Notes under the pieces: generated by a model
What the model was told of the DNA's origin: nothing
Database searches by the model: none
The model's input: the letters and a program-made list of their open reading frames with translations, nothing else
Program-made: the position numbers and the translations under genes
Shown: one piece after another, positions 2,305-60,722 of the stretch
How the letters are laid out: each line of letters starts with the position of its first letter
Numbering within the stretch: position 1 is the first letter of the stretch
DNA from: Spirochaetia bacterium
Lineage (GTDB): Bacteria > Spirochaetota > Spirochaetia > SZUA-6 > Bin103
Direction of reading: 5' to 3'
DNA: 64,000 bases
Assembly: GCA_965262935.1 (NCBI GenBank)
Contig: OZ253572.1
Span: forward strand, 6,846,445-6,910,444

Positions 2305-2517
2305 AACCTTTGGTCCACATTATAGATCATCCGACTAGGTCACGCGCCGGGACAGGTATCCGTGTATCCGTCCCCTCCCGCGGGCGCCACCACATCGGTC
2401 TCTCCTCCCTGAACACCCTCAGCCACTTGACTGCCAGCGCTTCTGCGGTCAGCCTACTGCAATCCTGCGGGCCGTTAACCCCCATCTGTGGTACGCCCCC
2501 CTATGGAAGGTGGTAAC

Positions 2518-34581: not shown

Positions 34582-35607
34582 CTACGAATTCGTCACATCC
34601 TCGTCCGCAAGGTCCAGGGGAATACGGACTCGGTGAAACTCTGGAGCGTTGAGACTCCCCGAGGCAAATACCATTCCTCTCGCCGTGCCACCCGGTTTCC
34701 AATCCGGGTAGTCAAGTAGGACGTTCGATAACGTCACCTCTGTTGGACAATTCGTCTTCGGATCAAGAAAACCAGTCCCTTTGAGCTTCAACTCCCCGGT
34801 TGTACGCCCTGCGCCTGTACTGTCCCTACATGACTGAATGAGCCGAAAGTCAAAATACACTTGATCAGCATTATCCGTAGCAAAGCAATGAACTTCCCCT
34901 CTTACGCTACCGACGGTTTCGAATCCATTTTGCAGCAACAACTCTGTCACTGCATCACCTTCTTGGTCTCTAATCGACTCGAATATCTGTACCATAGAGA
35001 GTTTCATAGGCACACGTATTTCGCTCAGAAGATCATTCAGATCCTTCTTCAAGAGAACTCGATTGACGTCCGAGCACTCTTTCATCTCGCTGACCAACTC
35101 AGAAGCGAGCCCCTTTTCGTAGCTTTTCTGTTCGTAGAAGTCCGTATCTTGCGTAACAAAAAACACATCTCCTTCTTGGAGCAACTCGAGACAATGCGCC
35201 CAAATTACTCCGTCGCGGAACTCCTCCTTGGTCTTTGATGGCGGGATTCTCCTGATTATCTTTATCATCGAAGACCGAGCAACATCTACATTAAACTCAA
35301 CCTCACGGACTGGGACATCAAAATTTGACACGATGCGAGAGACCACTCCTCGGATGTCTTCTTCGAGCGGCAGCGTAAGACGCTGCAACTTGTGAAACAC
35401 CTGCAGCAGCTGTTTGTGGCTGTCTGCTGCTTGTTTTCTTAGCTTCAACAAGTGACCCGTCAGCCGCTCCTCTATTTCGAGTCTTACGATTTCCGGGACT
35501 ACGACAGTCGCCCCTTGTCTCAGGGCGAAGTGACGAACGGCGGCACCACTCCGTGATTGGAGACCCAATTGGGAAAACCACACATTTGAATCGAATAGTA
35601 TGAACAT
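34582..35607 (-). CDS. PIN-like domain protein (DUF4935-type) with a ~220-aa C-terminal extension
   Basis: N-terminal MFILFDSNVWFSQLG, with the first acidic residue of the PIN fold in the FDSN motif, then conserved acidic positions. Low GC. Confidence 0.55.
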   Translation of the reverse strand: MFILFDSNVWFSQLGLQSRSGAAVRHFALRQGATVVVPEIVRLEIEERLTGHLLKLRKQAADSHKQLLQVFHKLQRLTLPLEEDIRGVVSRIVSNFDVPVREVEFNVDVARSSMIKIIRRIPPSKTKEEFRDGVIWAHCLELLQEGDVFFVTQDTDFYEQKSYEKGLASELVSEMKECSDVNRVLLKKDLNDLLSEIRVPMKLSMVQIFESIRDQEGDAVTELLLQNGFETVGSVRGEVHCFATDNADQVYFDFRLIQSCRDSTGAGRTTGELKLKGTGFLDPKTNCPTEVTLSNVLLDYPDWKPGGTARGMVFASGSLNAPEFHRVRIPLDLADEDVTNS

Positions 35608-36532
35608 ATGAGTTTCACGGGCGCGACTAAGAGAGTTGTTCTCCGCCAAATCGGAGGGGGCACTTGCCATGGATAGGCAGTGTAGCAGTCAACGCGTAGG
35701 CGCGCTACCCTTTGGGGGGCGCGGGGGCGCGGATTCGGAAACGATGGAAACAAGCTGCCCGAGCGTAGCTTCGGAGTCGTCAGATCAGCTTCCCAATGCA
35801 GTCTCGCCGCGACGCTCCGGTAGCCGTTGCGAAGTTGTTCCACCGATCGCTACATTCGTGACGCGACACCGCGGCGCTCGTCGGTCTCCAACTCCGTCAA
35901 ACGCTGCAGCGTGACCCGTCCCACCTGACGCAAGACGTCGTCGTTGGCATGCTTCTCAGCTTGTTCCGGTCTACAATCCGGCGCCGACAATCCGGCGCCG
36001 TGGTGGACATTCAACGGACGATATGAGTATTGCTCCTATCATGGCATTAGGAATCGCAGCGACGGGTGGCCGGGGACGTTCCGGCACCTGTCCGGCTTGG
36101 AGGCCGGGGGTCACGCGCCGTCGGCTGGCGACGCGGGGACGTCGACCGATGGTTGGAGGCTCTGCCGAAGGCGTAGGCCGCCGTCGTGGGCGTGCCGGGA
36201 CCGGAGGGAAACCCCATCCGGCAACGCGGCAACCACCGAGTCGGCACGACAGTTATTCGCGGAAACAACCCAAAACCGCCAACAGGAAACTAGTGGGGAT
36301 CAAGCGATCACTGCCGGGTACTCATAACCGTTGGAGCGGAAGGCATGCTTAAGCTGTACTGGGGTGACGCCAAAGCCTGAGCGGGTTGGCGGCGGAGGGC
36401 TTCGAAGGAGAGGGCCAGCGGGCCGCCGCTGCGGGGGGAGCCGGGGGTGCCGGCTCAAGGACGGGGAGCCCGAGAAGCCGCGGTCCCGGAACTGCCACGA
36501 GCCGAGGCTTAGTCGACAGGGTGTTTTCATAC

Positions 36533-39500
36533 ATGGGCGCAAGGAATTACGATGACGGCGTGGCGCAGCCGTTTTTCGAACAACCGATCCTGAATTCGCC
36601 GTATGAATACCCGGCGCGGCACTGGGAACTGGACGAGGACCGGCAACCCACCAACCAGATCGTCGACCGTCGGCGTACCGTATCGTTCATCACGCCGATT
36701 CCCGCCGCCCGCAAGCAACGCGCGGCTCAGCGCGAGCTGGGTGTGGATGATGCCCGCGGCACGGCGGACGAGGACGGTCAGCAATACGAACTGATGAGGA
36801 TGATCGAGAGCGTGCGCCACAGCGTGAACGAGTGGCGCCGGCTGCCCCGAGCCCGGTGGCGGGTTACCGCGGAGACCGCCCGCCTGCTCCATCATTGGCG
36901 CCACCACCAGTTCAGCGACATCCGTCCATTCTTCTGCCAGGTCGAGGCGGTGGAGACCGTGATCTGGCTGACCGAGGTAGCCGCCAGCGCCGGACGCGAC
37001 GGGCGGCAGTTCGTCCAGCGGCTGCAGGAGGCGAACGACCAAGCCAACCCCGGCCTCCCGCGGCTGGCACTCAAACTCGCCACCGGCGCCGGCAAGACGA
37101 CGGTGATGGCGATGCTGATCGCGTGGCAGACGGTCAACGCGGTGCGCCATCCGGGCAGCCAGCGATTCACGCGCGGCTTCCTGGTAGTGACCCCCGGCCT
37201 GACGATCCGCGACCGGCTGCGCGTGCTGCAGCCCAACGACCCGGACAGCTACTACCAGAGCCGCGAACTGGTGCCGCGCGACATGCTCGGCGATCTGCAC
37301 CGCGCCAACATCGTCATCACCAACTACCACGCCTTCATGCCGCGTGAGACGCAGGACATCTCAAGCGGTGGACGCGCCCTGCTGCAGGGGCGCGGCCCGG
37401 AGCTGCACACGCTGGAGACCGAGGGCCAGGTGCTGCAGCGGGTCATGCCCGGCCTGATGGGCATGAAGAACATCATGGCATTCAACGACGAAGCCCATCA
37501 CTGCTACCGCGAGAAGCCCGCGCAGAAGAGCGACGAGGCCAGACTGACGGCAGACGACCGCCGGGAGGCCAAGAAGAACAGCGAAGCCGCTCGGGTATGG
37601 ATTTCCGGCCTCGAAGTGGTGCAGCGCAGGCTGAGTCTGAGCAGGGTGCTCGATCTTTCGGCCACGCCATTCTTCCTGCGCGGCTCCGGCTACGCGGAGG
37701 GCACGCTGTTCCCCTGGACAATGAGCGACTTCTCGCTGATGGACGCGATCGAGTGCGGCATCGTCAAGCTGCCGCGCGTGCCGGTGGCGGACAACATCCC
37801 CAGTGGCGAGATGCCCACGTTTCGGAACCTGTGGGAGCACATCGGCACGAAGATGCCACGAAAGGGGCGCGCCAAGTCCGCGCTGCTCGACCCGCTGAGC
37901 ATTCCCACACGGTTGAAGACCGCCCTCGAAGCGCTCTATGGCCACTACCAGAAGATCTTCGACCAGTGGCGCGAAACGGGCATTCAAGCGCCTCCGTGCT
38001 TCATCGTCGCGTGCAACAACACGGCCACCTCGAAACTGGTCTACGACTACATCTCCGGGTTTCATCGCCAACATGAGGACGGCTCCTCTTCGCTCGAGAA
38101 CGGAAGGCTGGAGTTGTTTCGGAACTTCGACGAATACGGCCACCCGCTCGCCAGACCGCACACCCTGCTGATCGACAGCGAGCAGCTCGACTCCGGGGAA
38201 GGACTCGGCCGGGACTTCCGGGTCGCCGCGAGCGACGAGATCGAGCGCTTCCGTCGCGAGATCGTCGCGCGCACCGGCGACCGCCGCCAGGCCGAAAGCC
38301 TCTCCGACCAGGACCTGTTGCGCGAAGTGATGAACACCGTCGGCGTCGCGGGCCGGCTCGGCGGCTCCACCCGCTGCGTGGTGTCGGTCTCGATGCTCAC
38401 CGAGGGCTGGGACGCGCGCACCGTCACCCACATCCTCGGAGTGCGCGCGTTCGGCACCCAGCTTCTGTGCGAGCAGGTGGTGGGCCGCGCTCTGCGCCGC
38501 CAGTCCTACGATCTGAACGAAGAGGGCCTGTTCAACGTCGAGTACGCGGACGTGCTCGGCATCCCGTTCGACTTCACCGCCCAGCCGGTCGCCGCCAGGC
38601 AGCCGAAGCCGCGCGAGACGGTACCGGTCCGGGCCATCACCCCGGATCGGGACGCCTGCGAGATTCGCTTTCCGCGCGTCCAGGGATACCGCGTGGAACT
38701 GCCGGAGGAACACGTCGACGCGAAGTTCGGCCAGGACTCGACCCTGGTCCTCACCCCGGACATCGTCGGCCCTTCCGTCACGCACAATGCCGGCATCATC
38801 GGCGAGGGCGTCGACCTGAACCTGATCCACCGCCGGGATCTGCGCCCTGCCACGCTGGTCTACCATCTCACCAAGACCCTGCTGGAGAAACACTGGCGCG
38901 CGCCCGATCAGGAGCCGAAGCTGCACCTGTTCGGTCAACTCAAGCGAGTCACCCGCCGCTGGCTGACCGATCACCTGGTCTGCAACGGTGGCACCTACCC
39001 CGCTCAACTCATGTACCAGGAGCTGGCCGACCAGGCGTGCACACGCATCACGCGCGGAATTGTGGCGCGGCATCTCGGGGAGCGCCCGGTCACCGCGGTG
39101 CTGGATCCCTACAACCCGACCGGCTCCACGATCCACGTCAACTTCACCACCTCGAAGCAGCCCCGCTGGCAAACCGACGCCCGCCTGTGCCACGTGAACT
39201 GGGTGGTCTGCGACAGCGAGTGGGAGGCGGAGTTCTGCCGCTTCGTCGAGTCGCAGCCGCAGGTCCACGCTTACGTGAAGAACCACGGCCTCGGGCTGGA
39301 GGTTCCCTACCGGTACGGCTCCGAGGCGCGCACCTACCTCCCCGACTTCATCGTGCTGGTGGACGATGGCCGCGGCGAGGATGATCTGCTCCACCTCGTG
39401 GTCGAGATCAAGGGCTACCGCCGCGAGGACGCCAAGGAAAAGAAGGCCACCATGGACACCTACTGGGTGCCGGGCATCAACCGCTCCGGTGCCTACGGCC

Positions 39501-39607
39501 GCTGGGCCTTCGCAGAGTTCACCGACGTGTATACGATTGGCGACGAATTTGCCGCCGCGACCGGGCTCGTGAATGTCGATGCCGACAAGAAAAGGATTGC
39601 TGGATAG
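36533..39607 (+). CDS. res: type III restriction-modification restriction subunit (Res, SF2 helicase + endonuclease)
   Basis: N-terminal QPFFEQPILNSPYEYPARHWELD, a hallmark of type III Res. Walker A ATGAGKT, DEAH-box-like FNDEAHHCY, motif VI SMLTEGWDARTVTHILGVRAF. Confidence 0.9.
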   Translation: MGARNYDDGVAQPFFEQPILNSPYEYPARHWELDEDRQPTNQIVDRRRTVSFITPIPAARKQRAAQRELGVDDARGTADEDGQQYELMRMIESVRHSVNEWRRLPRARWRVTAETARLLHHWRHHQFSDIRPFFCQVEAVETVIWLTEVAASAGRDGRQFVQRLQEANDQANPGLPRLALKLATGAGKTTVMAMLIAWQTVNAVRHPGSQRFTRGFLVVTPGLTIRDRLRVLQPNDPDSYYQSRELVPRDMLGDLHRANIVITNYHAFMPRETQDISSGGRALLQGRGPELHTLETEGQVLQRVMPGLMGMKNIMAFNDEAHHCYREKPAQKSDEARLTADDRREAKKNSEAARVWISGLEVVQRRLSLSRVLDLSATPFFLRGSGYAEGTLFPWTMSDFSLMDAIECGIVKLPRVPVADNIPSGEMPTFRNLWEHIGTKMPRKGRAKSALLDPLSIPTRLKTALEALYGHYQKIFDQWRETGIQAPPCFIVACNNTATSKLVYDYISGFHRQHEDGSSSLENGRLELFRNFDEYGHPLARPHTLLIDSEQLDSGEGLGRDFRVAASDEIERFRREIVARTGDRRQAESLSDQDLLREVMNTVGVAGRLGGSTRCVVSVSMLTEGWDARTVTHILGVRAFGTQLLCEQVVGRALRRQSYDLNEEGLFNVEYADVLGIPFDFTAQPVAARQPKPRETVPVRAITPDRDACEIRFPRVQGYRVELPEEHVDAKFGQDSTLVLTPDIVGPSVTHNAGIIGEGVDLNLIHRRDLRPATLVYHLTKTLLEKHWRAPDQEPKLHLFGQLKRVTRRWLTDHLVCNGGTYPAQLMYQELADQACTRITRGIVARHLGERPVTAVLDPYNPTGSTIHVNFTTSKQPRWQTDARLCHVNWVVCDSEWEAEFCRFVESQPQVHAYVKNHGLGLEVPYRYGSEARTYLPDFIVLVDDGRGEDDLLHLVVEIKGYRREDAKEKKATMDTYWVPGINRSGAYGRWAFAEFTDVYTIGDEFAAATGLVNVDADKKRIAG

Positions 39608-42574
39608 ATGGCGAAGCGCCGGACGCGCAAGAAACCGATCGAAGTAACGTCCATTACCCACGACGAGGCGTCGCGCCGGAACATCCCCACGGCCGAGTAC
39701 CGGTCGGTGATGGAAAAGGGCGATCAGAGCCCCATCCAGGTGGCCTACCAGCGCCGCAACCGCGACCTGGATCCGCAGCTCGTGTGGCGCGGCAAGGACG
39801 AGCAGGACTGGTCCGACCTCGTGGTGCAGGCGCCGCCGCTGTTCATCCAGGAGAAGGTGCACCCCAAGGTGCTGATCGACGACCTCCTGCGGCGCAGCAA
39901 GGAGGGGCAACAAGCAGCGCACGCCCAACTCGACCTGTTCGCCGACTTCAACGGCCTGCCGGACGACAACGCCCGCACCGAGTTCTACCGACACGACGCC
40001 AACTGGTCCAACCGCATGATCCTCGGCGACAGCCTGCAGGTAATGGCCTCCTTGGCCGAGCGTGAAGGGCTGCGCGGCAAGGTGCAGTGCATCTACCTCG
40101 ACCCGCCCTACGGCATCAAGTTCAACTCCAACTTCCAGTGGTCCACCACCAGCCGCGACGTGAAGGACGGCAAGGCAGAGCACATCACTCGCGAACCCGA
40201 GCAAGTCAAGGCCTTCCGCGACACTTGGCGTGACGGCATCCACTCCTATCTGACGTATCTACGTGATCGGCTGACGGTAGCACGTGATTTGCTTACCGAA
40301 AGCGGTAGTATATTTGTCCAAATCGGCGACGAGAATGTACATCGGGTAAGGGCACTGTTAGATGAAGTCATGGGACAGGATAACTTCGTGGCACAAATTG
40401 CTGCTACCAAGACCGCCGGACAGACAGATGCTCTCTTGCCGTCTTTGTTTGATACACTCCTGTGGTATAAGAGGAGTTCAGAGCGCTGCAAATTCCGACG
40501 TCTCTTTCGGGACAAGGGTGTTGGACAAGATGAAATTGGACAATACTACTTCGTTCAACTGAGTGATGGTACACGGAGCCGGCTGACTGAACGAGAGACA
40601 CTTTCCGGTCATGGTCTTGAACAGGGATCTCCGTTTCGCAGTTCCGATATCTCTAGCAACAAACCCTATAGCCTTGGTCGTCTACCATTTGAGTTCGAAG
40701 GCAGGGTATTTCTTCCCCCTGCAGGTCGTTACTGGACGCACAGTCCGGACGGTCGAGAACGGTTAAGGAAAGCCGACAGGTTGATCGCGATGGGAAAGAA
40801 TATTCGGTTCGTCGGTTTTCTGCAAGATGATCCCGTTTCAACGATTAGCAACCAATGGACTGACACTGGGATCAGCGGCTTCGCAGCCGACAAGGTTTAT
40901 GTCGTCCAGACCAGCCCGAAGTTAATTGAGCGGTGCATCCTGATGGCCACCGATCCTGGCGACCTTGTCTTGGACCCAACTTGTGGCTCAGGAAGCACGG
41001 CCTATGTCGCCGAGCAATGGGGACGGCGCTGGATTACCATCGATACCTCCCGCGTGGCTTTGGCTCTGGCCCGCTCCCGCGTCATGGGTGCACGTTATCC
41101 ATACTATCTGCTCACGGACAGCACGGCGGGCCGGCAGAAGGAAGCAGATATTACGCAGACGATCACGATGAAAGGGCTTGCGGGCCGCGACATCAGGCAG
41201 GGCTTCGTATACGAGCGTGCCACCCACGTCACTCCGAGGTTAATCGCCAACAACGCCGAGATCGACGTGATCTGGGAGCGGTGGCAGGAGACGCTGGAGC
41301 GGCTTCGGGCGGAACTGAACGGCGCGCTTGGTCGCGCGTGGGAGGAGTGGGAGGTCCCGCGAGAGGCTGGCGAGCCGTGGCCCGAGCCGGCGACGGCAGC
41401 GTGGAAACGGTTGCAGTCGGCCCAGTCCGATGCGCAGAGAGCCGACGCACTGTTGGCTTTGAACCACGCTCTGCGCCGCGACTACACCCTTGACGATGTC
41501 CCCGGCCAGCCGCGCGACCCGTGGGACGCGGTCCCCCGAACCGACCTGCACCGCCGCTGGTGGGAGGCGCGCATCGCGCGGCAGAAGGAGATCGATGCCT
41601 CCATCGCCGCCAAGGCGGACTTCGAGTACCTGTACGACAAGCCCTACGAGGATCGGGGCACCGTCCGCGTCGCCGGCCCGTTCACGGTGGAGAGCCTGGC
41701 GCCGCACCGCACGCTCGGCGTCGACGAGAATGACGAACTGATCGACCATCTCGCCGAGACCAAGACCGGCTACGACGGGCAGCAGGAATTCGCGACCATG
41801 ATCCTGGAGCACCTGAACACGTCGGGCGTCCAGCAGGCGCACCGGGAGGACCGCATCTCCTTCACCGCGCTCACCCCGTGGCCTGGTGACCTGATCTGCG
41901 CCGAGGGGCGCTACGTCGAAGGTGACGTGGACACCGGGACCGAACGCCGTGCCGGGATCTTCATCGGCCCGGAGTTCGGCACCGTTGCCCGCCCCGACCT
42001 GGTGGCCGCCGCCCTCGAAGCCGCCGACGCCGACTTCGACGTGCTGATCGCCTGCGCGTTCAGCTACGAGGCACACGCCACCGAGTTCAGCAAACTCGGC
42101 CGCATCCCGATTCTCAAGGCGCGTATGAACGCCGACCTGCACATGGCCGGCGACCTGAAGAACACCGGCAAGGGCAACCTGTTCGTGATCTTCGGCGAGC
42201 CGGACATCGAGATCATCCCGGTCCAGGACAACGCCACTCAGGCGTGCCAGATCCAGGTCAAGGTCAACGGCGTGGACGTGTTCCACCCCAACACCGGCGA
42301 AATCCGCAGCGACGGCCCGGACGGCATCGCCTGCTGGTTCGTCGACACCGACTACAACGAGGAGAGTTTCTTCGTCCGCCACGCCTACTTCCTCGGCGCC
42401 AACGACCCCTACAAGGCGCTCAAGACGACCCTCAAGACGGAGATCCACCGCGACGCCTGGGAAACCCTGCACAGCGACACCTCCCGCCCCTTCGACCGCC
42501 CCGCCTCCGGCCGCATCGCCGTCAAGGTCATCAACCACCTCGGCGACGAAGTAATGAAAGTCTTCCGCGTGTGA
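39608..42574 (+). CDS. mod: type III R-M N6-adenine DNA methyltransferase (Mod) with long C-terminal extension
   Basis: IYLDPPYGI (motif IV DPPY) and LVLDPTCGSGSTAYVA (motif I). Its ATG follows the res stop by 0 nt (TAGATG). The low-GC middle segment at 40250..41100 is the probable target-recognition domain. Confidence 0.9.
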   Translation: MAKRRTRKKPIEVTSITHDEASRRNIPTAEYRSVMEKGDQSPIQVAYQRRNRDLDPQLVWRGKDEQDWSDLVVQAPPLFIQEKVHPKVLIDDLLRRSKEGQQAAHAQLDLFADFNGLPDDNARTEFYRHDANWSNRMILGDSLQVMASLAEREGLRGKVQCIYLDPPYGIKFNSNFQWSTTSRDVKDGKAEHITREPEQVKAFRDTWRDGIHSYLTYLRDRLTVARDLLTESGSIFVQIGDENVHRVRALLDEVMGQDNFVAQIAATKTAGQTDALLPSLFDTLLWYKRSSERCKFRRLFRDKGVGQDEIGQYYFVQLSDGTRSRLTERETLSGHGLEQGSPFRSSDISSNKPYSLGRLPFEFEGRVFLPPAGRYWTHSPDGRERLRKADRLIAMGKNIRFVGFLQDDPVSTISNQWTDTGISGFAADKVYVVQTSPKLIERCILMATDPGDLVLDPTCGSGSTAYVAEQWGRRWITIDTSRVALALARSRVMGARYPYYLLTDSTAGRQKEADITQTITMKGLAGRDIRQGFVYERATHVTPRLIANNAEIDVIWERWQETLERLRAELNGALGRAWEEWEVPREAGEPWPEPATAAWKRLQSAQSDAQRADALLALNHALRRDYTLDDVPGQPRDPWDAVPRTDLHRRWWEARIARQKEIDASIAAKADFEYLYDKPYEDRGTVRVAGPFTVESLAPHRTLGVDENDELIDHLAETKTGYDGQQEFATMILEHLNTSGVQQAHREDRISFTALTPWPGDLICAEGRYVEGDVDTGTERRAGIFIGPEFGTVARPDLVAAALEAADADFDVLIACAFSYEAHATEFSKLGRIPILKARMNADLHMAGDLKNTGKGNLFVIFGEPDIEIIPVQDNATQACQIQVKVNGVDVFHPNTGEIRSDGPDGIACWFVDTDYNEESFFVRHAYFLGANDPYKALKTTLKTEIHRDAWETLHSDTSRPFDRPASGRIAVKVINHLGDEVMKVFRV

Positions 42575-42827
42575 CGACACGGATGTCGTCACAGTCAGCG
42601 CTTGCCGGATCGCTACAAACAAGGCGCACCTCTGACGGACCGAGTCCGGCGCAATCTTGTCTACGCGTAGTGCCGGGATTCCCAATCCCGCTCGGAAGTG
42701 CAAGGTGTGGCGACTCGGGGCGTCTCATGCCCGTGCCAGCGGTGCAGGTGCGTTCCGATACGGTCGAGCTGACGGGTCAGCGCACATTGTTGCAATTGTC
42801 TGCCACTTAATCGATCTCAGAAAGGCT

Positions 42828-43109
42828 ATGTCCAGAATCAGAGTGTTGTTCGATCTAAGTACCGTATCCAAGATGCATGGTCTAGGACGGCTTTCTCAGT
42901 TGGTTCCAATTGGCGGAAACGTAATCGCATATGCATCGACAGCTTTTCTTGAGGAACTTTCCGGTCTGCGTAGAAAGCATCCACGAATGTATGAAGAGAT
43001 CCTTGATTGGTATCGGTCTTGTACGTTCGGACGTTTGATCAAGCCGTGGAGGCAACTCATATACAGTGAGGGATGCGCTGAAATCAGTAAATCGCTGCCT
43101 GATAGATGA
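42828..43109 (+). CDS. hypothetical small protein
   Basis: Low-GC ORF starting MSRIRVLFDLSTVSKMHGLGR. Weak support. Confidence 0.25.
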   Translation: MSRIRVLFDLSTVSKMHGLGRLSQLVPIGGNVIAYASTAFLEELSGLRRKHPRMYEEILDWYRSCTFGRLIKPWRQLIYSEGCAEISKSLPDR

Positions 43110-43341
43110 GCGATACATAGCTGTTATTCATGGTCACGATGGAGAAGAGAGGGCTCGCGAGTACGCTGAATTCAAGAATCGTAGAGATGGCTTACGGTAT
43201 TCAGCCGTCGAGGGCGTCAACGAATGGCGGGTCGAGACGATCAACCATAAATCAAACGACGAGTACCGAGAAGTCACTTTCTACGGAATGTATGACGAGG
43301 ACAGAGCCCGCGAGTACGTTGCATTCAAGAATGCAACATAG
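43066..43341 (+). CDS. hypothetical small protein with internal duplication (EERAREYAEFKN / EDRAREYVAFKN)
   Basis: Low-GC 91-aa ORF; the internal repeat is seen in the translation. Confidence 0.3.
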   Translation: MRDALKSVNRCLIDERYIAVIHGHDGEERAREYAEFKNRRDGLRYSAVEGVNEWRVETINHKSNDEYREVTFYGMYDEDRAREYVAFKNAT

Positions 43342-43347
43342 TGGCAC

Positions 43348-44013
43348 CTATCGCCCGCCCCAACATTGCTGTGAGATTTGCGCCAAGTCATGTCGCAGGG
43401 TTTGCGGTGTGTGACGGTGATGTAGCTCTCTTAGTGTCTTTCCGTGGCAACACTTCACTAAGCGTCCGCTTCCGCACGGGCACAATCTATGTCCGTCATA
43501 TCCGTACTCGCTAAGGAAGCGGATTACTTCTACTGCCTCCTTCTCACATCTCAGGTCGAAGGCGTCCATGTAGAATTGTACTATCCCGGCAGAACCATGT
43601 TTTTGTTCCCCGAAAGGATGAACATCATGTTTCTCCCAATAGCGATATCCGTAAAGGAAGGGGACCAAAAGACGGTTTACGAACCCCAAAAGAGTCGGCT
43701 CGTTGTGAAATATGATGCGCGCCTTAATGGGAACGCAGAGGCAGAGCGTTCTGTCTGGATTTACGTGTTCGTACTCTTTAATTGAACCGCCGGTTTCCCT
43801 GGCTATGGGCAAGTCGTCTGGATACGATTCCGGTATGCACAATTCAACGTCGAAACAGGTCACAATGGACTCGAGTCCACCATAGTGTGCCCTAAACGGC
43901 AAAGCACCAGACAGGGCGGTTCCACCAACTTTCCTTTGTACTCTGGTCAGCTCTCGGTGGGTTTGCTGCAAGTCTCCGATCTGGCGCGACAATTCCTCGC
44001 TCAAACCCTCCAC
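43348..44013 (-). CDS. E2-like ubiquitin-conjugating-fold protein (short Cap2-like) with C-terminal SEC-C zinc motif
   Basis: EHVNPDRTLCLCVP matches the E2 HPN...C(L) catalytic signature. C-terminal CPCGSGRLVKCCHGK is a SEC-C motif. Overlaps the CD-NTase gene by 13 nt. Confidence 0.65.
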   Translation of the reverse strand: MEGLSEELSRQIGDLQQTHRELTRVQRKVGGTALSGALPFRAHYGGLESIVTCFDVELCIPESYPDDLPIARETGGSIKEYEHVNPDRTLCLCVPIKARIIFHNEPTLLGFVNRLLVPFLYGYRYWEKHDVHPFGEQKHGSAGIVQFYMDAFDLRCEKEAVEVIRFLSEYGYDGHRLCPCGSGRLVKCCHGKTLRELHHRHTPQTLRHDLAQISQQCWGGR

Positions 44014-45185
44014 GGCTTAGGGCCTTCTGCGATACTAATATTGGGAACGGGGATCGCTGGCGTTTCGGGCGAGATCAACGCAAGACGCGACGACGTGGCC
44101 GGGATGCCTAGGGCTGCGGCGAGAATACGGTCAGGGTTGGAACGACCAGTACCCAATATGTCAACCAAGTCCTCCTTCAGCTTAGCCACCCAACGGAAGA
44201 ACGCTCTGGCACGAGCGTGTCCATCCTCGTGCCATCGGTCGGCGAAATTCTCGTCTTGGTTGACAGGGTTACCAATATACCAAGTCCCATCTGGCTTGCG
44301 CCTGATAAGCTGCCTTCCTGCGAGGCTGCCTGTTGGCAATCGTCCTGCCATTAGTACGGCATGATCATCGAGCTGGCTTACAATTCCGGCAAGCGCTGCG
44401 TAAATGTCAAGTTCTCCTTGATACAGGTGCCCAGCGAGCGTGGTAATGATCATGGAGATTGGCCCATAGTCGCTGTTGCTGAACATAACGTCGCGGTGAC
44501 GTTTCATTATCTGGATGCTTCTCTGTAAGGGAGTACGGACTAGTTGATCGGGAACGTCGTCGATGGAAGCGTACACCGCCGCTTCCTGTCGAAAAATGGA
44601 CTCTTTCTGAGATGCGGCAACCCGCGCGAACGCTCCTCTGTTGCGTCCAGAGAACCATTCAGCGAAGCCACGGGGGTCGCTTGGCAACCAGTCATAGGTT
44701 CGGCCCTGCCTGTCCGTAATGGCAATCGCCGTAGGCCGACCGACTTTACTGTCAGGAACGCATGGCAGTATGTCCATGTGGAACCCGATGTTATCTTGTT
44801 CGGCATATTCAAGTGTCCAGCATCGACGGCCCTCATCATCGAGAAGGCCGAGATAGGTCTTGTGTTCGCGGAGGCGATCCCCGACCATCACCTTAACGGT
44901 CTTAGGTTCCGTTAGATATCGCGGAATAGACAGCTCGCACACCAGGTCGATATCATAGTCAGCCTCCGCCCCATGCTTGATCGGTCTTACGACAGTACCC
45001 AGGCGGAATGAACCCTGAGTGTAAATCGATGGAGTTTCGGACGAACCCTGATAGTTCCCGTTCTCCAGCCACTCTCCAACGGACTTGTACCTTTCGACTG
45101 CTTGTTGGTACTTGCTCGGTGAGATGTCGATGTCTTGTGCGATTCTGTTAAGAAACTCCGAATACCTCGCGTTGTCAATTGGCAT
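44001..45185 (-). CDS. cGAS/DncV-like nucleotidyltransferase (CD-NTase, SMODS domain)
   Basis: GSFRLGTVVRPIKHGAEADYDIDLV fits [GS]x..[DE]h[DE]h, with a third acidic site at HMDILP. Length is 394 aa. Confidence 0.8.
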   Translation of the reverse strand: MPIDNARYSEFLNRIAQDIDISPSKYQQAVERYKSVGEWLENGNYQGSSETPSIYTQGSFRLGTVVRPIKHGAEADYDIDLVCELSIPRYLTEPKTVKVMVGDRLREHKTYLGLLDDEGRRCWTLEYAEQDNIGFHMDILPCVPDSKVGRPTAIAITDRQGRTYDWLPSDPRGFAEWFSGRNRGAFARVAASQKESIFRQEAAVYASIDDVPDQLVRTPLQRSIQIMKRHRDVMFSNSDYGPISMIITTLAGHLYQGELDIYAALAGIVSQLDDHAVLMAGRLPTGSLAGRQLIRRKPDGTWYIGNPVNQDENFADRWHEDGHARARAFFRWVAKLKEDLVDILGTGRSNPDRILAAALGIPATSSRLALISPETPAIPVPNISIAEGPKPWRV

Positions 45186-45197
45186 AGTGTTCTCCGT

Positions 45198-46163
45198 CTA
45201 TAGTGTGTAGCATGGAATGAATTCCTCTGCTGTGGTGTCAAAGAACGTGGGCGTGAGGACGGGTTTTCTATCTCGTCCTAGAGAATGCCCAAGTCCCTTC
45301 AAATCGTCGATGACCTTCGCATCATCGAATTTGTATTGGTCTTGCGGTACTGTGTAGTCGATCCGGTGTAACGACTGGCGGTCATGCTCATGACCAAGAA
45401 GCAACCTAGTCATGCCTAGCGATCCATTGGACTGACCGTCCATGAACAGTTTTACGGCGTTTAGTCCGATTCGCACGAGACCAGACCGCTTGTGGACCGT
45501 GTATGTCTCGTCCAGGCAACCGAGGCTTAGCATGGAGAGAGACTCTGCTGGCCATTTCAGCACTGCGATAGCCTCGACGGCGGCAATTGCAGCTGGATTG
45601 TTGGCCCATATACCACCGTCAATCAGGCTCGCACCTTGTTTAGTGACATGCGGTGGAAAGATCGTCGAGGCGGCCGACGTGGCCATAGCTGCATCAATGG
45701 CAGGGGAGCGATAATCTGTCCGAAAGCGAGGATGGTGAGCGGTCTTGTAGACGTATACAGACTTGGCTTGCGGATTCCACGTTGGGACCACTAAACGGGT
45801 TCGAGAATCTCCGATGAGCTTGCTGCCTATCGTCTCTGTGAGTGCCGTCCGGAGTGCCTCGGGGCCGTACTTGGACCGAAATATCTGTCGGATGCGACGG
45901 GCAAACCGGGGCCCTCCGAATATCTTTGGGCCATGTTCTTCGTAGAAGTCGAGAACATCTGAAGCTCTATACCCAAGCCCAAGCGCAATCCCTATTATGC
46001 CGCCAGTAGACGTTCCCACGATTAGATCGAAATAAGAGCCTATTGGCTCTTGTAGGTCTTTCTCTAGCTCTGCGAGGAAGGCTGCGGGGAACGTACCAAG
46101 GATGCCTCCTCCGTCAATAGAGAGGATGCGCCGTTTCTTGTCGATGGGCCCCTGAGGTTCCAA
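45198..46163 (-). CDS. patatin-like phospholipase (CapV-like CBASS effector)
   Basis: IDGGGILGTF oxyanion motif, GTSTGG nucleophile elbow (GxSxG), and LIDGGIWANNP carrying the catalytic Asp (DG motif). Confidence 0.85.
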   Translation of the reverse strand: MEPQGPIDKKRRILSIDGGGILGTFPAAFLAELEKDLQEPIGSYFDLIVGTSTGGIIGIALGLGYRASDVLDFYEEHGPKIFGGPRFARRIRQIFRSKYGPEALRTALTETIGSKLIGDSRTRLVVPTWNPQAKSVYVYKTAHHPRFRTDYRSPAIDAAMATSAASTIFPPHVTKQGASLIDGGIWANNPAAIAAVEAIAVLKWPAESLSMLSLGCLDETYTVHKRSGLVRIGLNAVKLFMDGQSNGSLGMTRLLLGHEHDRQSLHRIDYTVPQDQYKFDDAKVIDDLKGLGHSLGRDRKPVLTPTFFDTTAEEFIPCYTL

Positions 46164-46417: not shown

Positions 46418-46790
46418 ATGGCATGGAAGCGAACGCAGCACAAAGCGCCAGGGAAGTACTACCGCAACGGGATCACGCTGATCGACCTGATGCGGATGTT
46501 CCCGGACGACGCAACCGCCGAGCAGTGGTTCGTCGAAGGCCGCTGGCCTGCCGGCGTGCGCTGTCCGTACTGCCACAGCGACCGAGCCACCCGCTGCACG
46601 CACAAGACCATGCCGTTCCGCTGCCCGAGCTGCCGCACGTTCTTTTCGGTCAAGACGGACACGGTAATACACGCCTCCAGGGTCGGCTACCAGAAATGGG
46701 CCATCGCCATCTACCTGATGACCACGCGGATCAAGGGCATCTCAAGCATGAACATGCACCGCGAGATCGGCGTCACCCAAGAAGACGGCG
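46418..46790 (+). pseudogene. IS1595-family (ISXO2-like) transposase N-terminal fragment
   Basis: The zinc-ribbon region CPYCHS...CPSCRTFFSVKTDTVIHASRVGYQKWAIAIYLMTTRIKGISSMNMHREIGVTQ matches the family. The DDE domain is absent because the frame degenerates after ~125 aa. Confidence 0.65.
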
Positions 46791-47176
46791 TGGTATATGT
46801 GCCACCGGATGCTCCGATGCTGCTACCGGGGCCCACCAAGCGGTCCTTGCTGAATTCTATAGGTAGTTGCCGCGGCACTACTCCAGGTAATTCCCCACCG
46901 CGGTTCGCGACACCTTCAGCGCGCCTCCAATCGCCCGCTCGCTGCTGCACACCCACGGGGCGAGGCGGTTCAAACAAGGTTGCCAATGCGAATGGTACGG
47001 AAGATATCGTTGGTCGCCGAGCGCAAATCGCGCCAAATGACTTGCCCGAGCTACCGCCGGCTATCGTCGCCGGGCAGCAGTATCACTACGGGTTACCGGT
47101 CAAAGGAGGCAAACTCCAGGATGCTGCCGCCCGATCCATTTCCACACCTCTTGACGGAACCTTCCCGGGGTGCGGG

Positions 47177-48154
47177 TCAAGCGTCCGACGTGGCAACGGG
47201 TCTGTCCCATTCTTCGGAACCGGACCAAATGCGATAAACGGTTGGTTGTCGCTCAGCGCCAGGGACGTTTGACTTCCCTACAACAATCATTTCGTGACAA
47301 CGATCTACTATTCGGCTACGCGCTGACAAGTCCGTCCTTACCGGTGAAATCAACCCGGCTACACCTGATATATCAACTCCGTCCTTGCGAGGATCACTAT
47401 TTGTCACCAATTCCTGCATCATGCGAATGATGTACAAACCAGAATAGATTACCACCAACTGAACGTAAGAGAGGCATCCGAAATGGACGCAGTTTGCCAT
47501 TCTATAGCGCTTTCCTGCGCCTCTATCTATGTCATCCGGTTTCACGCCAACGGCCACAACCGCGGGGAGCTGATCAGTATTGGCGTGAGCACCTTCGAAA
47601 TCTGCTACTAATTTCAGCGCATCCCTCACTGTATATCCAACGGAATTGACCTGCATAATCTTCATCTCAAGCCACTTATCCATACTGATCGGGCTTCCAC
47701 TTACATCGAATGGACTTGTCATTTTACACCATCCGTCTTCTTGAAATTCGATACCGTACAACCGCCCAATCTTTATTTTATGCTCACTCTCTGGTACCAC
47801 GACCTGTTCTCTCCTCCCACCCTCGAACCCCAACACCCATTCCTGACGCTGGGTACGCCGCTTCAATATTGCCTTACTGTACTTGCCTTTTTCTCCACCC
47901 ACTGACAGGAACTGCGGATCCAAAACAACTCTCTGCAGCAATCTAGCCTGTCCGTCCAAGCAAAGTTTTCGTATAGGTACTGACATCTGTCTGACGGCTG
48001 TTCGCAAAAGCAGTAGGGCGGTGTTCTCATTTGAATGAGAATAGGCGATTACCAACCGCTGTGCAGCTGTTGCGAGTTCCGTGACACACTCTAACATAGC
48101 ATTCACGGTCATAGGATGAACCTTTTTGTTCCAGTTCCACTCGATGCTTTCCAA
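47177..48154 (-). CDS. hypothetical protein (about 300 aa), low-GC
   Basis: Long ORF with distinctly lower GC over 47400..48150. The 3' end (47177..47300) is in high-GC DNA and may be over-extended. No motif recognised. Confidence 0.4.
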   Translation of the reverse strand: MESIEWNWNKKVHPMTVNAMLECVTELATAAQRLVIAYSHSNENTALLLLRTAVRQMSVPIRKLCLDGQARLLQRVVLDPQFLSVGGEKGKYSKAILKRRTQRQEWVLGFEGGRREQVVVPESEHKIKIGRLYGIEFQEDGWCKMTSPFDVSGSPISMDKWLEMKIMQVNSVGYTVRDALKLVADFEGAHANTDQLPAVVAVGVKPDDIDRGAGKRYRMANCVHFGCLSYVQLVVIYSGLYIIRMMQELVTNSDPRKDGVDISGVAGLISPVRTDLSARSRIVDRCHEMIVVGKSNVPGAERQPTVYRIWSGSEEWDRPVATSDA

Positions 48155-54513: not shown

Positions 54514-56484
54514 TCAACTGCGGACAAGCCGTTCGTTGACCTCGCTGCATATCCGCTGGAAGCGGTCCAGAATGGCCGGCGGCACCGTCACCTCGCCAAC
54601 CCTCTCTGCCAAGTAGCGAGCCGGGCGATAGTGATTAAAAGTGACTCCCTTTCTAAGGGGGTGCTCGACGAAATACTCCTTGAGGCGGACGGTGATCCGG
54701 GAATGCTTGCTCTTTAGGTCTTTCTCCTCAATTGGCTCACCAAGTGCCGCGGCGTACTCGGAATTGACAAGCTCGAGATAAAACTCTGTTCCGATTACGT
54801 CCTCAACGTCTGCCTCACTAGCTTCAACGAAGTCTGCATAGGTGAGCACCTGTTTCTTCTTAATGAGCTTGCGCCGCCACATGTTTTCAATCGCCTGACG
54901 GTCCTTCTCTTGAAAGTCGATCAGTGTAGCAACATTCATCTGCGTTTGCACACCCAGCAAGGCAACGAATGTAGGGACTTTATCTGATCCACCAACAGGA
55001 GTGATTGTCCATCCGGAACTGAGACCTTCTCGGCCCTCCGCTTGCAATACGCTTGTCATCACTTGGAGGTAGAGCAGGTCGGACACACCCTCCACAATGA
55101 GACTGTTTGGGCCAACGAAGAGCGTCTGCGCAATGTCGTAGCCGAGCGCTCCCTGCAGCGGGAACAGGCTGTCATCGGAGGTCGCCAGCACATCGACCGT
55201 TACCTTGGTGCCTGCGTCTCTATCCGCAACCTCTTCGTCAGCATCGATGCTTCGATCTTGAACGATCCGAACGCGGTCGAATCGCGCCGGATCGACCATG
55301 AAGGGCGAGTGTGTCGAGTAGATTAACTGATGATTTGGTACCAGCTCCTCTTCGAAATACGTGAGAAGGTCGCCCTGAGCCTTTCCGTGCAGTGATAAGC
55401 CAGGCTCGTCCAGCAGGATGATCACGTTCTGTTTATCACGCTGCACATCGCCGTACCAAGCAAGGAACGAGAAGAACCACACGAACCCATGAGAGCGCGT
55501 GCCAAGCTCCGTTGTCACCATGTGCAACGGGTCGTAGACCTCGGCCCAGATATTCGTACCGTTCTGCATCCCTGGCGGATCCTCTGGCTGCGCAGGGCGC
55601 ACGTCGAAGCGCATCTGGAGGTTTTTGTTCTGGGACCAGTACTTGACGATACTCTTGGTGAGGTGGTTCCCGGCGCCCTCAAGCTTGTTCTTGAGATCGC
55701 GAGTGCGCCCCGGCGTGAGAAGACTGTCGAGATCGAGGCGAGCCTTGCGGATCAAGCCGAGCATCGGGTGGTCCGGCTTCTCAAGCATCTCGTCTGCAAC
55801 CCGTTGCTGGAGCGCGTCGATATTGTCGCAACCCCGCATCTGGTAATACTCGTCGAAGTACATAAATCTCGGAACCCTGGAGCTGAGGATCTCGTCGCAG
55901 ATGTAGTCTGTGATCGAACCAGCGGAGACGATATCGTTCAACCACTCCGTGATGCTTTGGATCGCCGCTGTTTGTTCTAGATCAGTTACGATCTCCTTGG
56001 CCTCATCAGGTGTAGAACAGGACTCTAGTGCCTTACGGATCTCTTCCGGAACGGAGTAACCTGACAGTATGTGGTGCAGGGCTGCCTTATGGTCAACCGG
56101 AACAGAAAACGTGAAAGTGTCCTGTTCGTATGCTTTAGAAATCGTGATTTCTCTAGAGGCTAACGCCTTCGGACCAAAGACCTGTGCGATGGCGCCCGCG
56201 TCATCGTCGTCGAGCTCATATGTGAGCTGAGCAACCACGGCATGCTCGCGCTCTTTCTCTTCGATTGCGTGCTCGTAATCGGCAACGTCACCACGAGGGT
56301 AGTCGTCCGTGACGCTGTAGCCGACGTCGGTGTCGACGATCGGAAGGAGTCTATACATAGCCTGAAGGAGTGCCGTCTTACCTGCTTCATTCTTACCGAC
56401 GAGACAAGTGACATCTCCGACATTGAACTCGGTGGAATCGCGGACACTCTGGAAATCGGTGACGCGAACTTTCGTTAACTTCAT
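54514..56484 (-). CDS. OLD-family ATP-dependent nuclease (N-terminal ABC-type ATPase + C-terminal TOPRIM)
   Basis: Walker A VGKNEAGKTALLQA, Walker B/D-loop ILLDEPGLSLHGKAQ, TOPRIM LIVEGVSDLLYL. Length is 656 aa. It sits 25 nt upstream of the T5orf172 gene on the same strand. Confidence 0.8.
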   Translation of the reverse strand: MKLTKVRVTDFQSVRDSTEFNVGDVTCLVGKNEAGKTALLQAMYRLLPIVDTDVGYSVTDDYPRGDVADYEHAIEEKEREHAVVAQLTYELDDDDAGAIAQVFGPKALASREITISKAYEQDTFTFSVPVDHKAALHHILSGYSVPEEIRKALESCSTPDEAKEIVTDLEQTAAIQSITEWLNDIVSAGSITDYICDEILSSRVPRFMYFDEYYQMRGCDNIDALQQRVADEMLEKPDHPMLGLIRKARLDLDSLLTPGRTRDLKNKLEGAGNHLTKSIVKYWSQNKNLQMRFDVRPAQPEDPPGMQNGTNIWAEVYDPLHMVTTELGTRSHGFVWFFSFLAWYGDVQRDKQNVIILLDEPGLSLHGKAQGDLLTYFEEELVPNHQLIYSTHSPFMVDPARFDRVRIVQDRSIDADEEVADRDAGTKVTVDVLATSDDSLFPLQGALGYDIAQTLFVGPNSLIVEGVSDLLYLQVMTSVLQAEGREGLSSGWTITPVGGSDKVPTFVALLGVQTQMNVATLIDFQEKDRQAIENMWRRKLIKKKQVLTYADFVEASEADVEDVIGTEFYLELVNSEYAAALGEPIEEKDLKSKHSRITVRLKEYFVEHPLRKGVTFNHYRPARYLAERVGEVTVPPAILDRFQRICSEVNERLVRS

Positions 56485-59414: not shown

Positions 59415-60722
59415 GGGCTCTCGCCAAAATAATATGTTCTTTAGGTGAAGTGTGATATAGTGACGCTTCGTGATGGATGTCGCCCTGACCGAAACCGTCA
59501 AGGCCAAGTTCGTTGCCCTTGACCCGTTGTTCGACGAACGCTTGCGACGCCGCTGGGCGGCAGTCGAAGCACGCGGTATCGGGCGTGGCGGGATAGCCCG
59601 CGTAGCCGCAGCCACCGGTATGTCGCGGACGACCATTCGCGCCGGTCTGAAAGAGCTCGCTGCCAAGCAAGCGGCAGAGGCAGAACCCGAGACAGTGCGC
59701 GTGCGCCGGCCGGGGGCGGGACGCAAGCGATTGACCGCGCACGACCGGACCCTGGCGCAAGCGCTGGAGCGGTTGGTCGATCCGGTCACCCGCGGCGATC
59801 CGATGGGGCCGTTGCTGTGGACCTGCAGCAGCGCGGCGCGGTTGGCGACGGAACTGACGGCGGTCGGTCACGCGGTGAGCGAACGGACGGTGAACCGACT
59901 GTTACACGAGTTGGGCTACAGCCTGCAAGCCAACCGCAAGACGCTGGAAGGCAAGCAGCATGCGGACCGCGACGAGCAGTTCAAACGCATCAACCGGCGG
60001 GTGCGAGCGTTTCAGCGTCTGGGGCAGCCGGTAGTGTCTGTGGACACAAAGAAAAAGGAGTTGATCGGGCAATTTCGCAACGGCGGTCGAGAGTGGCGTC
60101 CGCAGGGCGACCCGGAGCGGGTCAAGGTGCACGATTTCATCGACCGGGAACTCGGCAAGGCGATTCCGTATGGGGTCTATGACGTGACCCGTGACAGCGG
60201 CTGGGTGAGTGTGGGGGAGGATCATGACACGCCGGCGTTCGCGGTGGAGACGCTGCGGAGGTGGTGGCGCCGGATGGGCAGGGCGGCGTATCCGGCGGCC
60301 AAGCGGCTGCTGATCACGGCCGACGGGGGTGGTTCCAACAGCAGTCGCAGTCGGCTGTGGAAGGCGGAGTTGCAGAAGTTCGCGGACGCGAGCGGGCTGT
60401 GCATCTCGGTGTGTCACTTTCCGCCGGGGACGAGCAAGTGGAACAAGATCGAGCACCGGATGTTCTGCCACATCGCGGAGAACTGGAGAGGGCGGCCGTT
60501 GGTGAGTCGAGAGGCGGTGGTGAATTTGATCGGGCACACGACGACGACAGAAGGATTGACGATCCGCTCGGAGTTGGACGAGAACAGCTATCCGACGGGA
60601 CAAACGGTGAGCGACGAGGAGATGGACAGGCTGAACCTGACGAGGGACAAATTTCACGGGGAATGGAACTACAAACTGACCCCGCGACACCGGTAACAGA
60701 CAGTTTATTTTGGCGAGACGCC
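59415..60722 (+). mobile_element. ISAzo13-family insertion sequence (about 1.3 kb) with terminal inverted repeats
   Basis: IRL GGCTCTCGCCAAAATAA at 59415..59431 and IRR TTATTTTGGCGAGACGCC at 60705..60722 (16/17 matching after reverse complement). A single transposase ORF lies inside. TAA flanks both ends, a possible 3-bp target duplication. Confidence 0.75.
59470..60696 (+). CDS. ISAzo13-family (Rhodopirellula-type DDE) transposase
   Basis: Full-length 408-aa ORF with the family-typical segments VSVDTKKKELIG, ITADGGGSN, HFPPGTSKWNKIEHRMF. Confidence 0.85.
   Translation: MMDVALTETVKAKFVALDPLFDERLRRRWAAVEARGIGRGGIARVAAATGMSRTTIRAGLKELAAKQAAEAEPETVRVRRPGAGRKRLTAHDRTLAQALERLVDPVTRGDPMGPLLWTCSSAARLATELTAVGHAVSERTVNRLLHELGYSLQANRKTLEGKQHADRDEQFKRINRRVRAFQRLGQPVVSVDTKKKELIGQFRNGGREWRPQGDPERVKVHDFIDRELGKAIPYGVYDVTRDSGWVSVGEDHDTPAFAVETLRRWWRRMGRAAYPAAKRLLITADGGGSNSSRSRLWKAELQKFADASGLCISVCHFPPGTSKWNKIEHRMFCHIAENWRGRPLVSREAVVNLIGHTTTTEGLTIRSELDENSYPTGQTVSDEEMDRLNLTRDKFHGEWNYKLTPRHR

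Follow-up and report, generated by a model that had tools for sequence, protein, structure and literature searches.

A gene of high GC content that is interrupted by a sharply AT-richer block raises the question of how that block arose. We have studied such a gene, the methyltransferase gene mod of a Type III-like restriction-modification (R-M) operon, in a stretch of 64,000 nucleotides from contig OZ253572.1 of a Spirochaetia bacterium (the window). The initial annotation suggested that the specificity domain, i.e., the target-recognition domain (TRD), had been replaced horizontally. Does the block mark such an exchange, or could it have another origin? Direct comparison with near-identical relatives, and not composition alone, supports replacement at the level of the DNA sequence. 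We consider it very probable that res and mod constitute an intact Type III-like R-M operon of the BPTD_3080 family, in which translation of the two genes is probably coupled, and that the low-GC block was left by homologous recombination. The two genes and the motifs that serve as landmarks in mod are:

36533-39607, plus strand: res, 1024 amino acids (aa) from an ATG that is also used by homologues
39608-42574, plus strand: mod, a 988-aa beta-class DNA methyltransferase and specificity subunit
40100-40111, plus strand: Mod motif IV, DPPY (catalytic), aa 165-168, by direct reading
40973-40999, plus strand: Mod motif I, DPTCGSGST (S-adenosylmethionine binding), aa 456-464, a TxGxG variant of FxGxG

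A compositional break within the mod gene

Measured in windows of 300 nt, the GC content is 0.49-0.55 at ~40150-41050, compared with 0.62-0.72 in the remainder of res and mod. The discontinuity is considerably sharper for the GC content of third codon positions (GC3): Mod aa 220-420 have values of only 0.35-0.5, compared with 0.8-1.0 for aa 1-200 and 500-988. In the best model with two change-points, GC3 drops from 0.91 to 0.54 over Mod aa 190-515 (40175-41152). This fit has a log-likelihood ratio of 81-82, and none of 300 permutations of the codons exceeded 10.9. The res gene is uniform, with GC3 = 0.87 and 0.77 in its lowest window of 100 codons. The windows and the change-points confirm the AT-richer stretch that had been noted at ~40250-41100 in a mod gene of otherwise ~66% GC. 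The block had also been placed between the DPPY and FxGxG motifs. It does begin after DPPY, which lies just upstream of it, but it contains motif I (GC3 0.56-0.65) and continues for ~80 codons beyond.

A block of this kind might be a foreign insert in mod, such as a fragment of an insertion sequence (IS), an intein or some other mobile insert, and the window is indeed a mosaic with several low-GC islands and with transposases nearby. We compared Mod with a set of 46 full-length sequences, comprising that of the window and 45 homologues from genome_contigs. The block is in frame, contains motif I, and aligns column for column with the 45 homologues without change of length, with a gap fraction of at most 0.09 over aa 201-500; moreover, it contains neither repeats nor a transposase signal. 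Insertion of a mobile element into mod is ruled out by the homologue alignment, and a foreign insert of any kind is exceedingly improbable.

Near-identical relatives reveal a mosaic

The same alignment delimits the TRD, as the initial annotation had proposed. Mean identity to the 45 homologues is 0.17-0.48 in a variable core, compared with 0.73-0.99 in the adjoining methyltransferase blocks at aa 141-260 and 441-500. Two relatives from metagenomes were then aligned to the window as DNA: L081, which encodes the protein P0006, and L082, which encodes P0007. Together these comparisons define two nested features.

40162-41245, plus strand: recombinant AT-richer tract, Mod aa ~185-546, delimited by where dense mismatches with L082 and L081 begin and end
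40370-40930, plus strand: variable TRD core, Mod aa 255-441, from mean identity to 45 homologues

The three sequences change their relationship in steps along the gene. Up to 40147 the window, L081 and L082 are mutually 98-100% identical in DNA. Between 40162 and 40321, L081 and L082 remain 95-100% identical to each other, while 12-23% of sites in the window depart from both; third codon positions account for 24 of its 27 mismatches there, with a shift toward A/T, and over 40208-40327 its GC content is 0.50-0.55, against 0.65-0.68 in L081 and L082. From 40322 to 41245 the window is close to L081 (87-100%), and both are unlike L082 (37-87%), whose TRD is unrelated to that of the window (27% aa identity). 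From ~41246-41300 onward, the window and L082 return to 95-100% identity. Thus L081 carries the TRD type of the window but has its left junction elsewhere, at ~40321-40333. Over the whole tract the GC content is 0.54, compared with 0.665 for the rest of mod.

The protein comparisons follow the same pattern. P0006 has a Mod 95% identical to that of the window, with a TRD 94% identical. By contrast, P0007, P0008 and P0011 are 96-99% identical to the window in their N- and C-terminal parts (the outer regions compared being Mod aa 1-254 and 651-988), yet only 26-27% identical in their TRDs. The opposite combination is found in the Methylobacter proteins P0109, P0115 and P0121, which do not have aa 595-650; their TRDs are 74-76% identical to that of the window, while their outer regions (aa 1-120 and 651-988) reach only 63-78%. 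The TRD of the window is rare, belonging to a cluster of 14 members, with the nearest others 68-76% identical.

Among three close relatives there are thus at least two TRDs and two different left junctions. A stepwise mosaic with distinct junctions indicates repeated homologous recombination in the conserved flanks, and the DNA mosaic of the window, L081 and L082 bears out the suggestion that the specificity domain was replaced horizontally. We propose that a tract of ~1.1 kb (~40162-41245), comprising the TRD and parts of its conserved flanks including motif I, was imported from an AT-richer allele of the same gene family, and that this would have given the lineage of the window a new specificity.

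The pattern is found throughout the family

Is the composition of the TRD a peculiarity of this locus? A scan with Res, using one genome per species, gave 80 related loci of 64-88% identity in many phyla. In 67 of these loci Res is followed by a Mod homologue of the same orientation, and most of the others are truncated by the end of the contig; the full-length Mods of related loci have 912-1043 aa. Among the 46 Mods of the comparison set, identities in the N- and C-terminal parts are correlated with one another (rho = 0.50), while TRD identity is uncorrelated with that of the flanks (rho = 0.09-0.15). In the groups L057/L063/L051 and L032/L025 the flanks are 89-98% identical (N-terminal 95-98%, C-terminal 89-94%) with TRDs of only 30-34% identity. 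GC3 is lower in the TRD than in the flanks in 45 of the 46 genes (means 0.50 and 0.76; Wilcoxon p = 7e-13), with a slope of 0.39 for the regression of TRD GC3 on flank GC3. The change-points vary by gene, from aa ~180-265 on the left and ~420-550 on the right, and the dip is present even in the mid-GC Methylobacter locus L083 (TRD GC3 0.20-0.36, flanks 0.56-0.80).

The near-universal dip, its dependence on the flanks and its presence in L083 would be expected if low GC3 were an intrinsic property of TRD-coding sequence throughout the family, due to weaker selection or to biased gene conversion for GC3, with no replacement. However, the low-GC3 tract of the window reaches into codons for protein that is 90-99% conserved (aa 190-254 and 441-515). 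In this conserved flank the differences between the window and L081 or L082 are synonymous third-position changes, yet the 240 nt just upstream are 99% identical. Moreover, near-identical frames with unrelated TRDs, and the same TRD type in distant frames, are signatures of recombination. The stepwise mosaics and the low GC3 of conserved codons contradict an intrinsic origin, which we regard as very unlikely.

The initial annotation had held that an equal composition in homologues would speak against replacement. The discontinuity is real, but this comparison does not discriminate because 45 of the 46 genes dip likewise; the family-wide dip generalizes the phenomenon instead of refuting replacement. 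We read the sequences as indicating that TRD cassettes are exchanged more often than the frames move, and that they are drawn from an AT-richer pool and have been only partly ameliorated.

The operon has the architecture of a Type III system

Res belongs to the BPTD_3080 family of restriction endonucleases (NCBIfam NF046055), with a score of 1312.1 bits against a cut-off of 800, and is aligned from end to end (residues 15-1008 on profile positions 1-968 of 970). Pfam matches are found to ResIII (aa 136-379) and RE_endonuc (aa 891-970). The motifs could be read from the translation.

37082-37099, plus strand: Res helicase motif I, TGAGKT
37487-37501, plus strand: Res helicase motif II, DEAHH
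38474-38497, plus strand: Res helicase motif VI, QVVGRALR
39341-39415, plus strand: Res nuclease motif PD...(E)xK, as PDFIV (aa 937-941) and VEIKG (aa 957-961), within the RE_endonuc match

The protein is therefore laid out as a Type III Res, with an ATPase region like that of superfamily 2 (SF2) helicases followed by a C-terminal PD..ExK nuclease.

Mod matches Pfam N6_N4_Mtase (2e-28, aa 159-487) and, over its whole length in two stretches, the PADLOC model MTase_III PDLC03632 (1343 bits); the first stretch aligns aa 1-596 with profile positions 1-633 of 983. In the PDB its sequence matches structures of Type III Mods, including that of Helicobacter pylori: 6k0w_B (8e-16) and 4zcf_A (2.4e-11) within aa 128-275, the latter being EcoP15I Mod, matched on aa 128-269, and also 7dsu. 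Motif IV, the variable region (aa 255-440) and motif I follow one another in the order of a beta-class Type III Mod. The DPPY form of motif IV is usual in enzymes that form N6-methyladenine (m6A), and the best named matches of Mod are adenine methyltransferases. The target is therefore likely to be adenine N6. A subgroup of Type III enzymes that forms N4-methylcytosine has been described in a paper that treats other families (PMC8259958).

Within Mod there is also an insert by which subfamilies can be told apart.

41390-41557, plus strand: insert of ~55 aa, Mod aa 595-650, marking a subfamily of ~985 aa and missing in one of ~930 aa

This insert is gapped in all 45 genome_contigs homologues, but nearly all of the 120 relatives listed from the protein database have it, with 55-96% identity. 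Among the matches listed, it is missing or barely alignable (0.04-0.18) only in P0109, P0114, P0115, P0121 and P0125, which are shorter proteins.

The assignment to Type III R-M is thus upheld at the level of architecture and motifs. Mod would recognize a short DNA motif by means of its central TRD and then methylate it, while Res would presumably dock on Mod and cut DNA carrying unmethylated sites. Enzymes of the EcoP1I/EcoP15I kind methylate one strand of a short asymmetric site, and for ATP-dependent cleavage, about 25-27 bp from a site, they require two unmethylated sites in inverse orientation. The gene structure, family membership, motifs, the mosaic with its junctions and the family-wide pattern are observed directly; enzymatic activity, m6A chemistry, a Res-Mod complex and the mode of cleavage are predicted on the basis of sequence.

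A conserved module at the C terminus of Mod

Mod continues for 524 residues past motif I and is ~340 aa longer than EcoP15I Mod (644 aa). The C-terminal extension of ~300 aa that had been remarked upon is therefore real, but it is found in all homologues and so is not specific to the locus.

41525-42571, plus strand: family-conserved C-terminal module, Mod aa 640-988, predicted by AlphaFold2 as an alpha/beta domain followed by a beta-sandwich

Prediction of aa 516-988 from a shallow alignment gave a mean predicted local distance difference test (pLDDT) score of 48.5 and was not used. With diverse representatives, aa 640-988 were predicted with a mean pLDDT of 82.9, as an alpha/beta domain and then beta-rich domains. 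Foldseek searches with this model gave best matches to restriction-endonuclease folds that were weak but in agreement between two libraries. In the PDB these were MspJI (4f0q_D, E = 3.7e-3, probability 0.99), AspBHI (4oc8_A, 9.7e-3) and RPB5; in BFVD they were a phage 'restriction endonuclease' (8.6e-4, the best) and Mrr-like proteins. The C-terminal tail matches immunoglobulin-like sandwiches. At the sequence level, aa 516-988 gave no credible match in Pfam or the PDB, including with a profile of 40 sequences; weak matches to Linocin_M18 in 19 of 40 members (best 2.7e-4) were judged spurious. The sequence GEPD (aa 863-866; E864 and D866) is at least 94% conserved across 49 diverse sequences, in which neither a conserved lysine nor a canonical D..(D/E)xK triad was found. 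A search with the C-terminal region matched 4880 representative clusters. Among the 150 listed of these 4880, full-length proteins (~825-1057 aa) carry the module at their C-terminal end, and many of those listed are fragments. The model hints at a nuclease-like module that is probably non-catalytic or non-canonical, with a possible role in docking of Res or in contact with DNA.

Could the system then be something other than a classical Type III enzyme, in which a large Mod and a divergent Res act by a different mechanism, with a second nuclease or modification-reading domain in Mod, or with Mod serving mainly as an epigenetic methylase and Res having some other role? Res falls outside the curated Type III Res models and has no sequence relative in the PDB, the Mod C terminus repeatedly matches MspJI, AspBHI and Mrr-like nucleases, E864 and D866 are highly conserved, and EcoP1I and EcoP15I have the opposite gene order (PMC3874151). 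Yet the structural similarity is weak (E = 1e-3 to 1e-2, template-modelling (TM) score about 0.25), diverse members share no conserved lysine or canonical triad, Res itself has complete helicase and PD..ExK motifs, and a helicase-nuclease Res together with a beta-class Mod is exactly the layout of Type III. We consider a non-classical system unlikely. A related and wider proposal is that systems of the BPTD_3080 type form a mechanistically distinct branch of R-M, in which the conserved C terminus of Mod (~350 aa) would take part in restriction as a second nuclease-like or DNA- or modification-reading domain, other defence and toxin genes would have the res-mod interval as their dedicated site of arrival, and TRDs would pass between phyla as a common pool of AT-rich cassettes; this we put forward as a doubtful conjecture.

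Observations that weigh against the proposed origin

Several observations weigh against the reading of the locus as a Type III-like operon with a recombined TRD. The first concern the source of the tract. Searching with the TRD alone in a database of 5.8 billion proteins gave 5 matches, the best of which were fragments of 68-71% identity, and no donor; outside the cluster of P0006 the best TRD relatives remain at the 68-76% given above. A blastn search with the conserved flanks of the tract against all fetched loci gave no closer donor frame. Second, the TRDs of the window and L081 (~94% identical in nucleotide sequence) resemble each other about as closely as the flanks do, which implies that the swap preceded the split of the two and is not of very recent date. 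Third, because the dip is near-universal in the family, composition alone neither dates nor proves the event here. Fourth, Res scores only 14.7 bits on the curated Type III Res model (NCBIfam PRK15483, cut-off 564) and at most 20.9 bits on the PADLOC REase_III models, and no sequence relative was found in the PDB at E ≤ 0.01. Since Res barely scores on the canonical models, a Type III mechanism is deduced from the architecture. Lastly, a literature search gave no paper on the BPTD_3080 family or on the res-mod order, so that apparently no member has been characterized; a further search, on the methylome of Bordetella pertussis, gave no description of the family.

We infer that the donor was an AT-richer allele of the same family and that the tract was transferred into the lineage of the window. 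The allele of P0035 (L085) was considered as donor of the AT-rich left flank and was ruled out by comparison.

P0035 is a Mod 79% identical to that of the window with a different TRD; in short contigs, a HepT gene and an AAA_15/AAA_21 ATPase lie upstream of its mod gene. P0035 may represent a second such system in the source genome and a potential partner in TRD exchange.

Organization of the operon and of related loci

The open reading frames and the junction sequence bear out the earlier description of res followed by mod with zero spacing (TAGATG), encoding 1024 and 988 aa. The mechanically called reading frame of res opens earlier, at a TTG at 36386.

39605-39610, plus strand: abutment of the res stop and mod start, TAG/ATG (GGATAG/ATGGCG)
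36414-36532, plus strand: upstream leader common to L081 by blastn, the presumed promoter region

The sequence of the junction ends GGATAGATGGCG, with the stop codon directly against the start codon, and AAGGA lies 11 nt upstream. Translational coupling of res and mod is plausible from this arrangement, and probably occurs. The gene calls of L081 and L082 have the identical abutment. Homology to L081 in blastn begins at 36414, i.e., 119 nt before the res ATG, and this leader would contain the promoter. No match to the sigma-70 consensus was found in it, and a promoter scan gave no promoter-like site. A terminator scan gave one terminator-like hairpin (40293-40308, within the AT-rich tract), a count below chance expectation. 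Tandem Repeats Finder, applied to 36000-43200, found no simple-sequence repeat in or near mod; the sole repeat was of 9 nt × 2.7 at 36430-36453, upstream of res. As a phasevarion would have such a repeat within mod or just upstream of it, this mod is not phase-variable.

The order of the genes had been considered unusual, since described systems are usually mod-res. The prototypes do have that order, but res-mod is constant in the 67 related loci. The res-then-mod order and the long Mod C terminus are constant features of the family (NF046055/PDLC03632) and not local oddities. In L049 and L043 no Mod was found within the fetched flank, and L002 has a Mod fragment only. The plasmid collection gave only partial matches of 72-76%. 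On the Methylibium plasmid pT29A (L084), Res is followed by a Tn3 transposase. The Res genes that lack an adjoining Mod (L049, L043 and L084) are possibly decayed or split systems.

The interval between res and mod is empty in the window, but in 40 of the 67 loci it contains variable cargo of 0.5-4.4 kb, most of it in the orientation of the operon. Cargo genes include Schlafen AlbA_2 with HATPase_c_4 (8 loci), GmrSD, Fic, NYN, Bro-N, an MNT/HepT pair, PIN, DUF4325/HATPase and YhcG/DUF1016. Examples of such cargo are:

L051, 10084-11715
L044, 10078-12009
L032, 10144-11235
L006, 11828-12497
L039, 10039-11142

The interval has the appearance of an intra-operon hotspot for defence and toxin genes.

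The Methylobacter locus L083 (Methylobacter sp. CP197401, 1-18895) lies in a dense defence island, with MksBEF and BrxR upstream and GmrSD between res and mod; the downstream genes encode an SMC/AAA_15 ATPase, a UvrD helicase and YjiT/YjiV-like proteins.

Genomic neighbourhood

The operon lies within a variable region of the chromosome; FtsK and tRNA-Met are also present in the window. Upstream, homology to L081 jumps from 34586 to 36414, so that the segment 34587-36413 (~1.8 kb, GC 0.46-0.52) is an insertion relative to L081. The neighbouring features are:

2488-4677: 729-aa protein with a UvrD_C_2 domain, in a low-GC block, a candidate defence gene
34582-35670, minus strand: PIN_12-domain gene, within the low-GC insert
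44001-45185, minus strand: SMODS/DncV-like nucleotidyltransferase (CD-NTase), one of a pair resembling a cyclic-oligonucleotide-based antiphage signalling system (CBASS), in a low-GC block downstream of mod
45198-46163, minus strand: patatin phospholipase, its partner in the CBASS-like pair
46418-47272: IS1595-type zinc-ribbon transposase
54514-56484: 656-aa AAA_15/AAA_21 (OLD/AbiEii-like) ATPase, in a low-GC block, a candidate defence gene
59470-60696: ISAZ013-type transposase

Relationship to known systems

Like EcoP1I and EcoP15I (4ZCF), the system has two subunits encoded by adjoining genes: a beta-class Mod with the order IV-TRD-I, which carries the specificity, and a Res with an SF2 helicase followed by PD..ExK. 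As was shown decades ago, the mod genes of EcoP1 and EcoP15 are alike at both ends but not in the central third; in these systems mod precedes res, with a gap of 2 bp in EcoP1 (PMC3874151). The window differs in having the order res-mod, although order is a habit of the prototypes and not a biochemical criterion, in the additional ~340 aa of Mod with their conserved C-terminal module, and in a diverged Res, for which the low score on the curated model and the absence of a PDB sequence match were noted above.

The conserved ends, the hypervariable TRD of lower GC content and the exchange via the flanks resemble those of modA, modB and modH of Neisseria, Haemophilus and Helicobacter; in modA the recognition domain is exchanged en bloc and has a lower GC content than its flanks (PMC3311624; also PMC1557822, PMC5909438). 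Unlike those genes, the mod of the window has no simple-sequence repeat and belongs to another Mod/Res family, and exchange here occurs among environmental metagenome lineages and across phyla, whereas theirs occurs within host-adapted pathogens. Compared with other members of NF046055/PDLC03632, the allele of the window has a rare TRD, no cargo between res and mod, and the extra ~55 aa of the ~985-aa subfamily.

Type I R-M operons shift their specificity by shuffling the TRDs of hsdS, and the interior of such operons takes up toxin-antitoxin and defence cargo. Both TRD exchange and the cargo of the related loci (Fic, HepT/MNT, PIN, GmrSD, YhcG/DUF1016 and Schlafen-AlbA_2) are reminiscent of this. 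Unlike Type I systems, the present one has its TRD inside Mod and hence no separate S subunit, and its methyltransferase is of a different class. In both the PDB and BFVD, the folds that best match the predicted Mod C terminus are the PD-(D/E)XK domains of MspJI, AspBHI and Mrr type; the C terminus is distinguished from them by weak scores, lack of sequence similarity and lack of a conserved catalytic triad.

Exchange of TRDs in Type III mod genes is already well documented, and the current understanding of Type III systems is not overturned. Nor are the constant gene order, the cargo slot, the AT-rich TRD pool, the nuclease-like C terminus and the weak coverage of Res by PADLOC established as functionally new. 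As PADLOC holds a full-length model for Mod, whereas its REase_III models score Res weakly, annotation based on the latter might overlook Res and classify the two genes as an orphan methylase.

What does the replacement mean for the biology of the system? It accounts for a sharp compositional break inside one gene. The family to which the operon belongs is very widespread yet experimentally uncharacterized, with 4880 clusters having the Mod C terminus and Res homologues across many phyla, and the cargo between res and mod is a possible source of new defence genes. The prediction is that the alleles of the window and L081 would methylate a different motif from that of L082, despite outer regions that are 96-99% identical. 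The contrast between these alleles would then be a natural experiment that links the sequence of the TRD to specificity.

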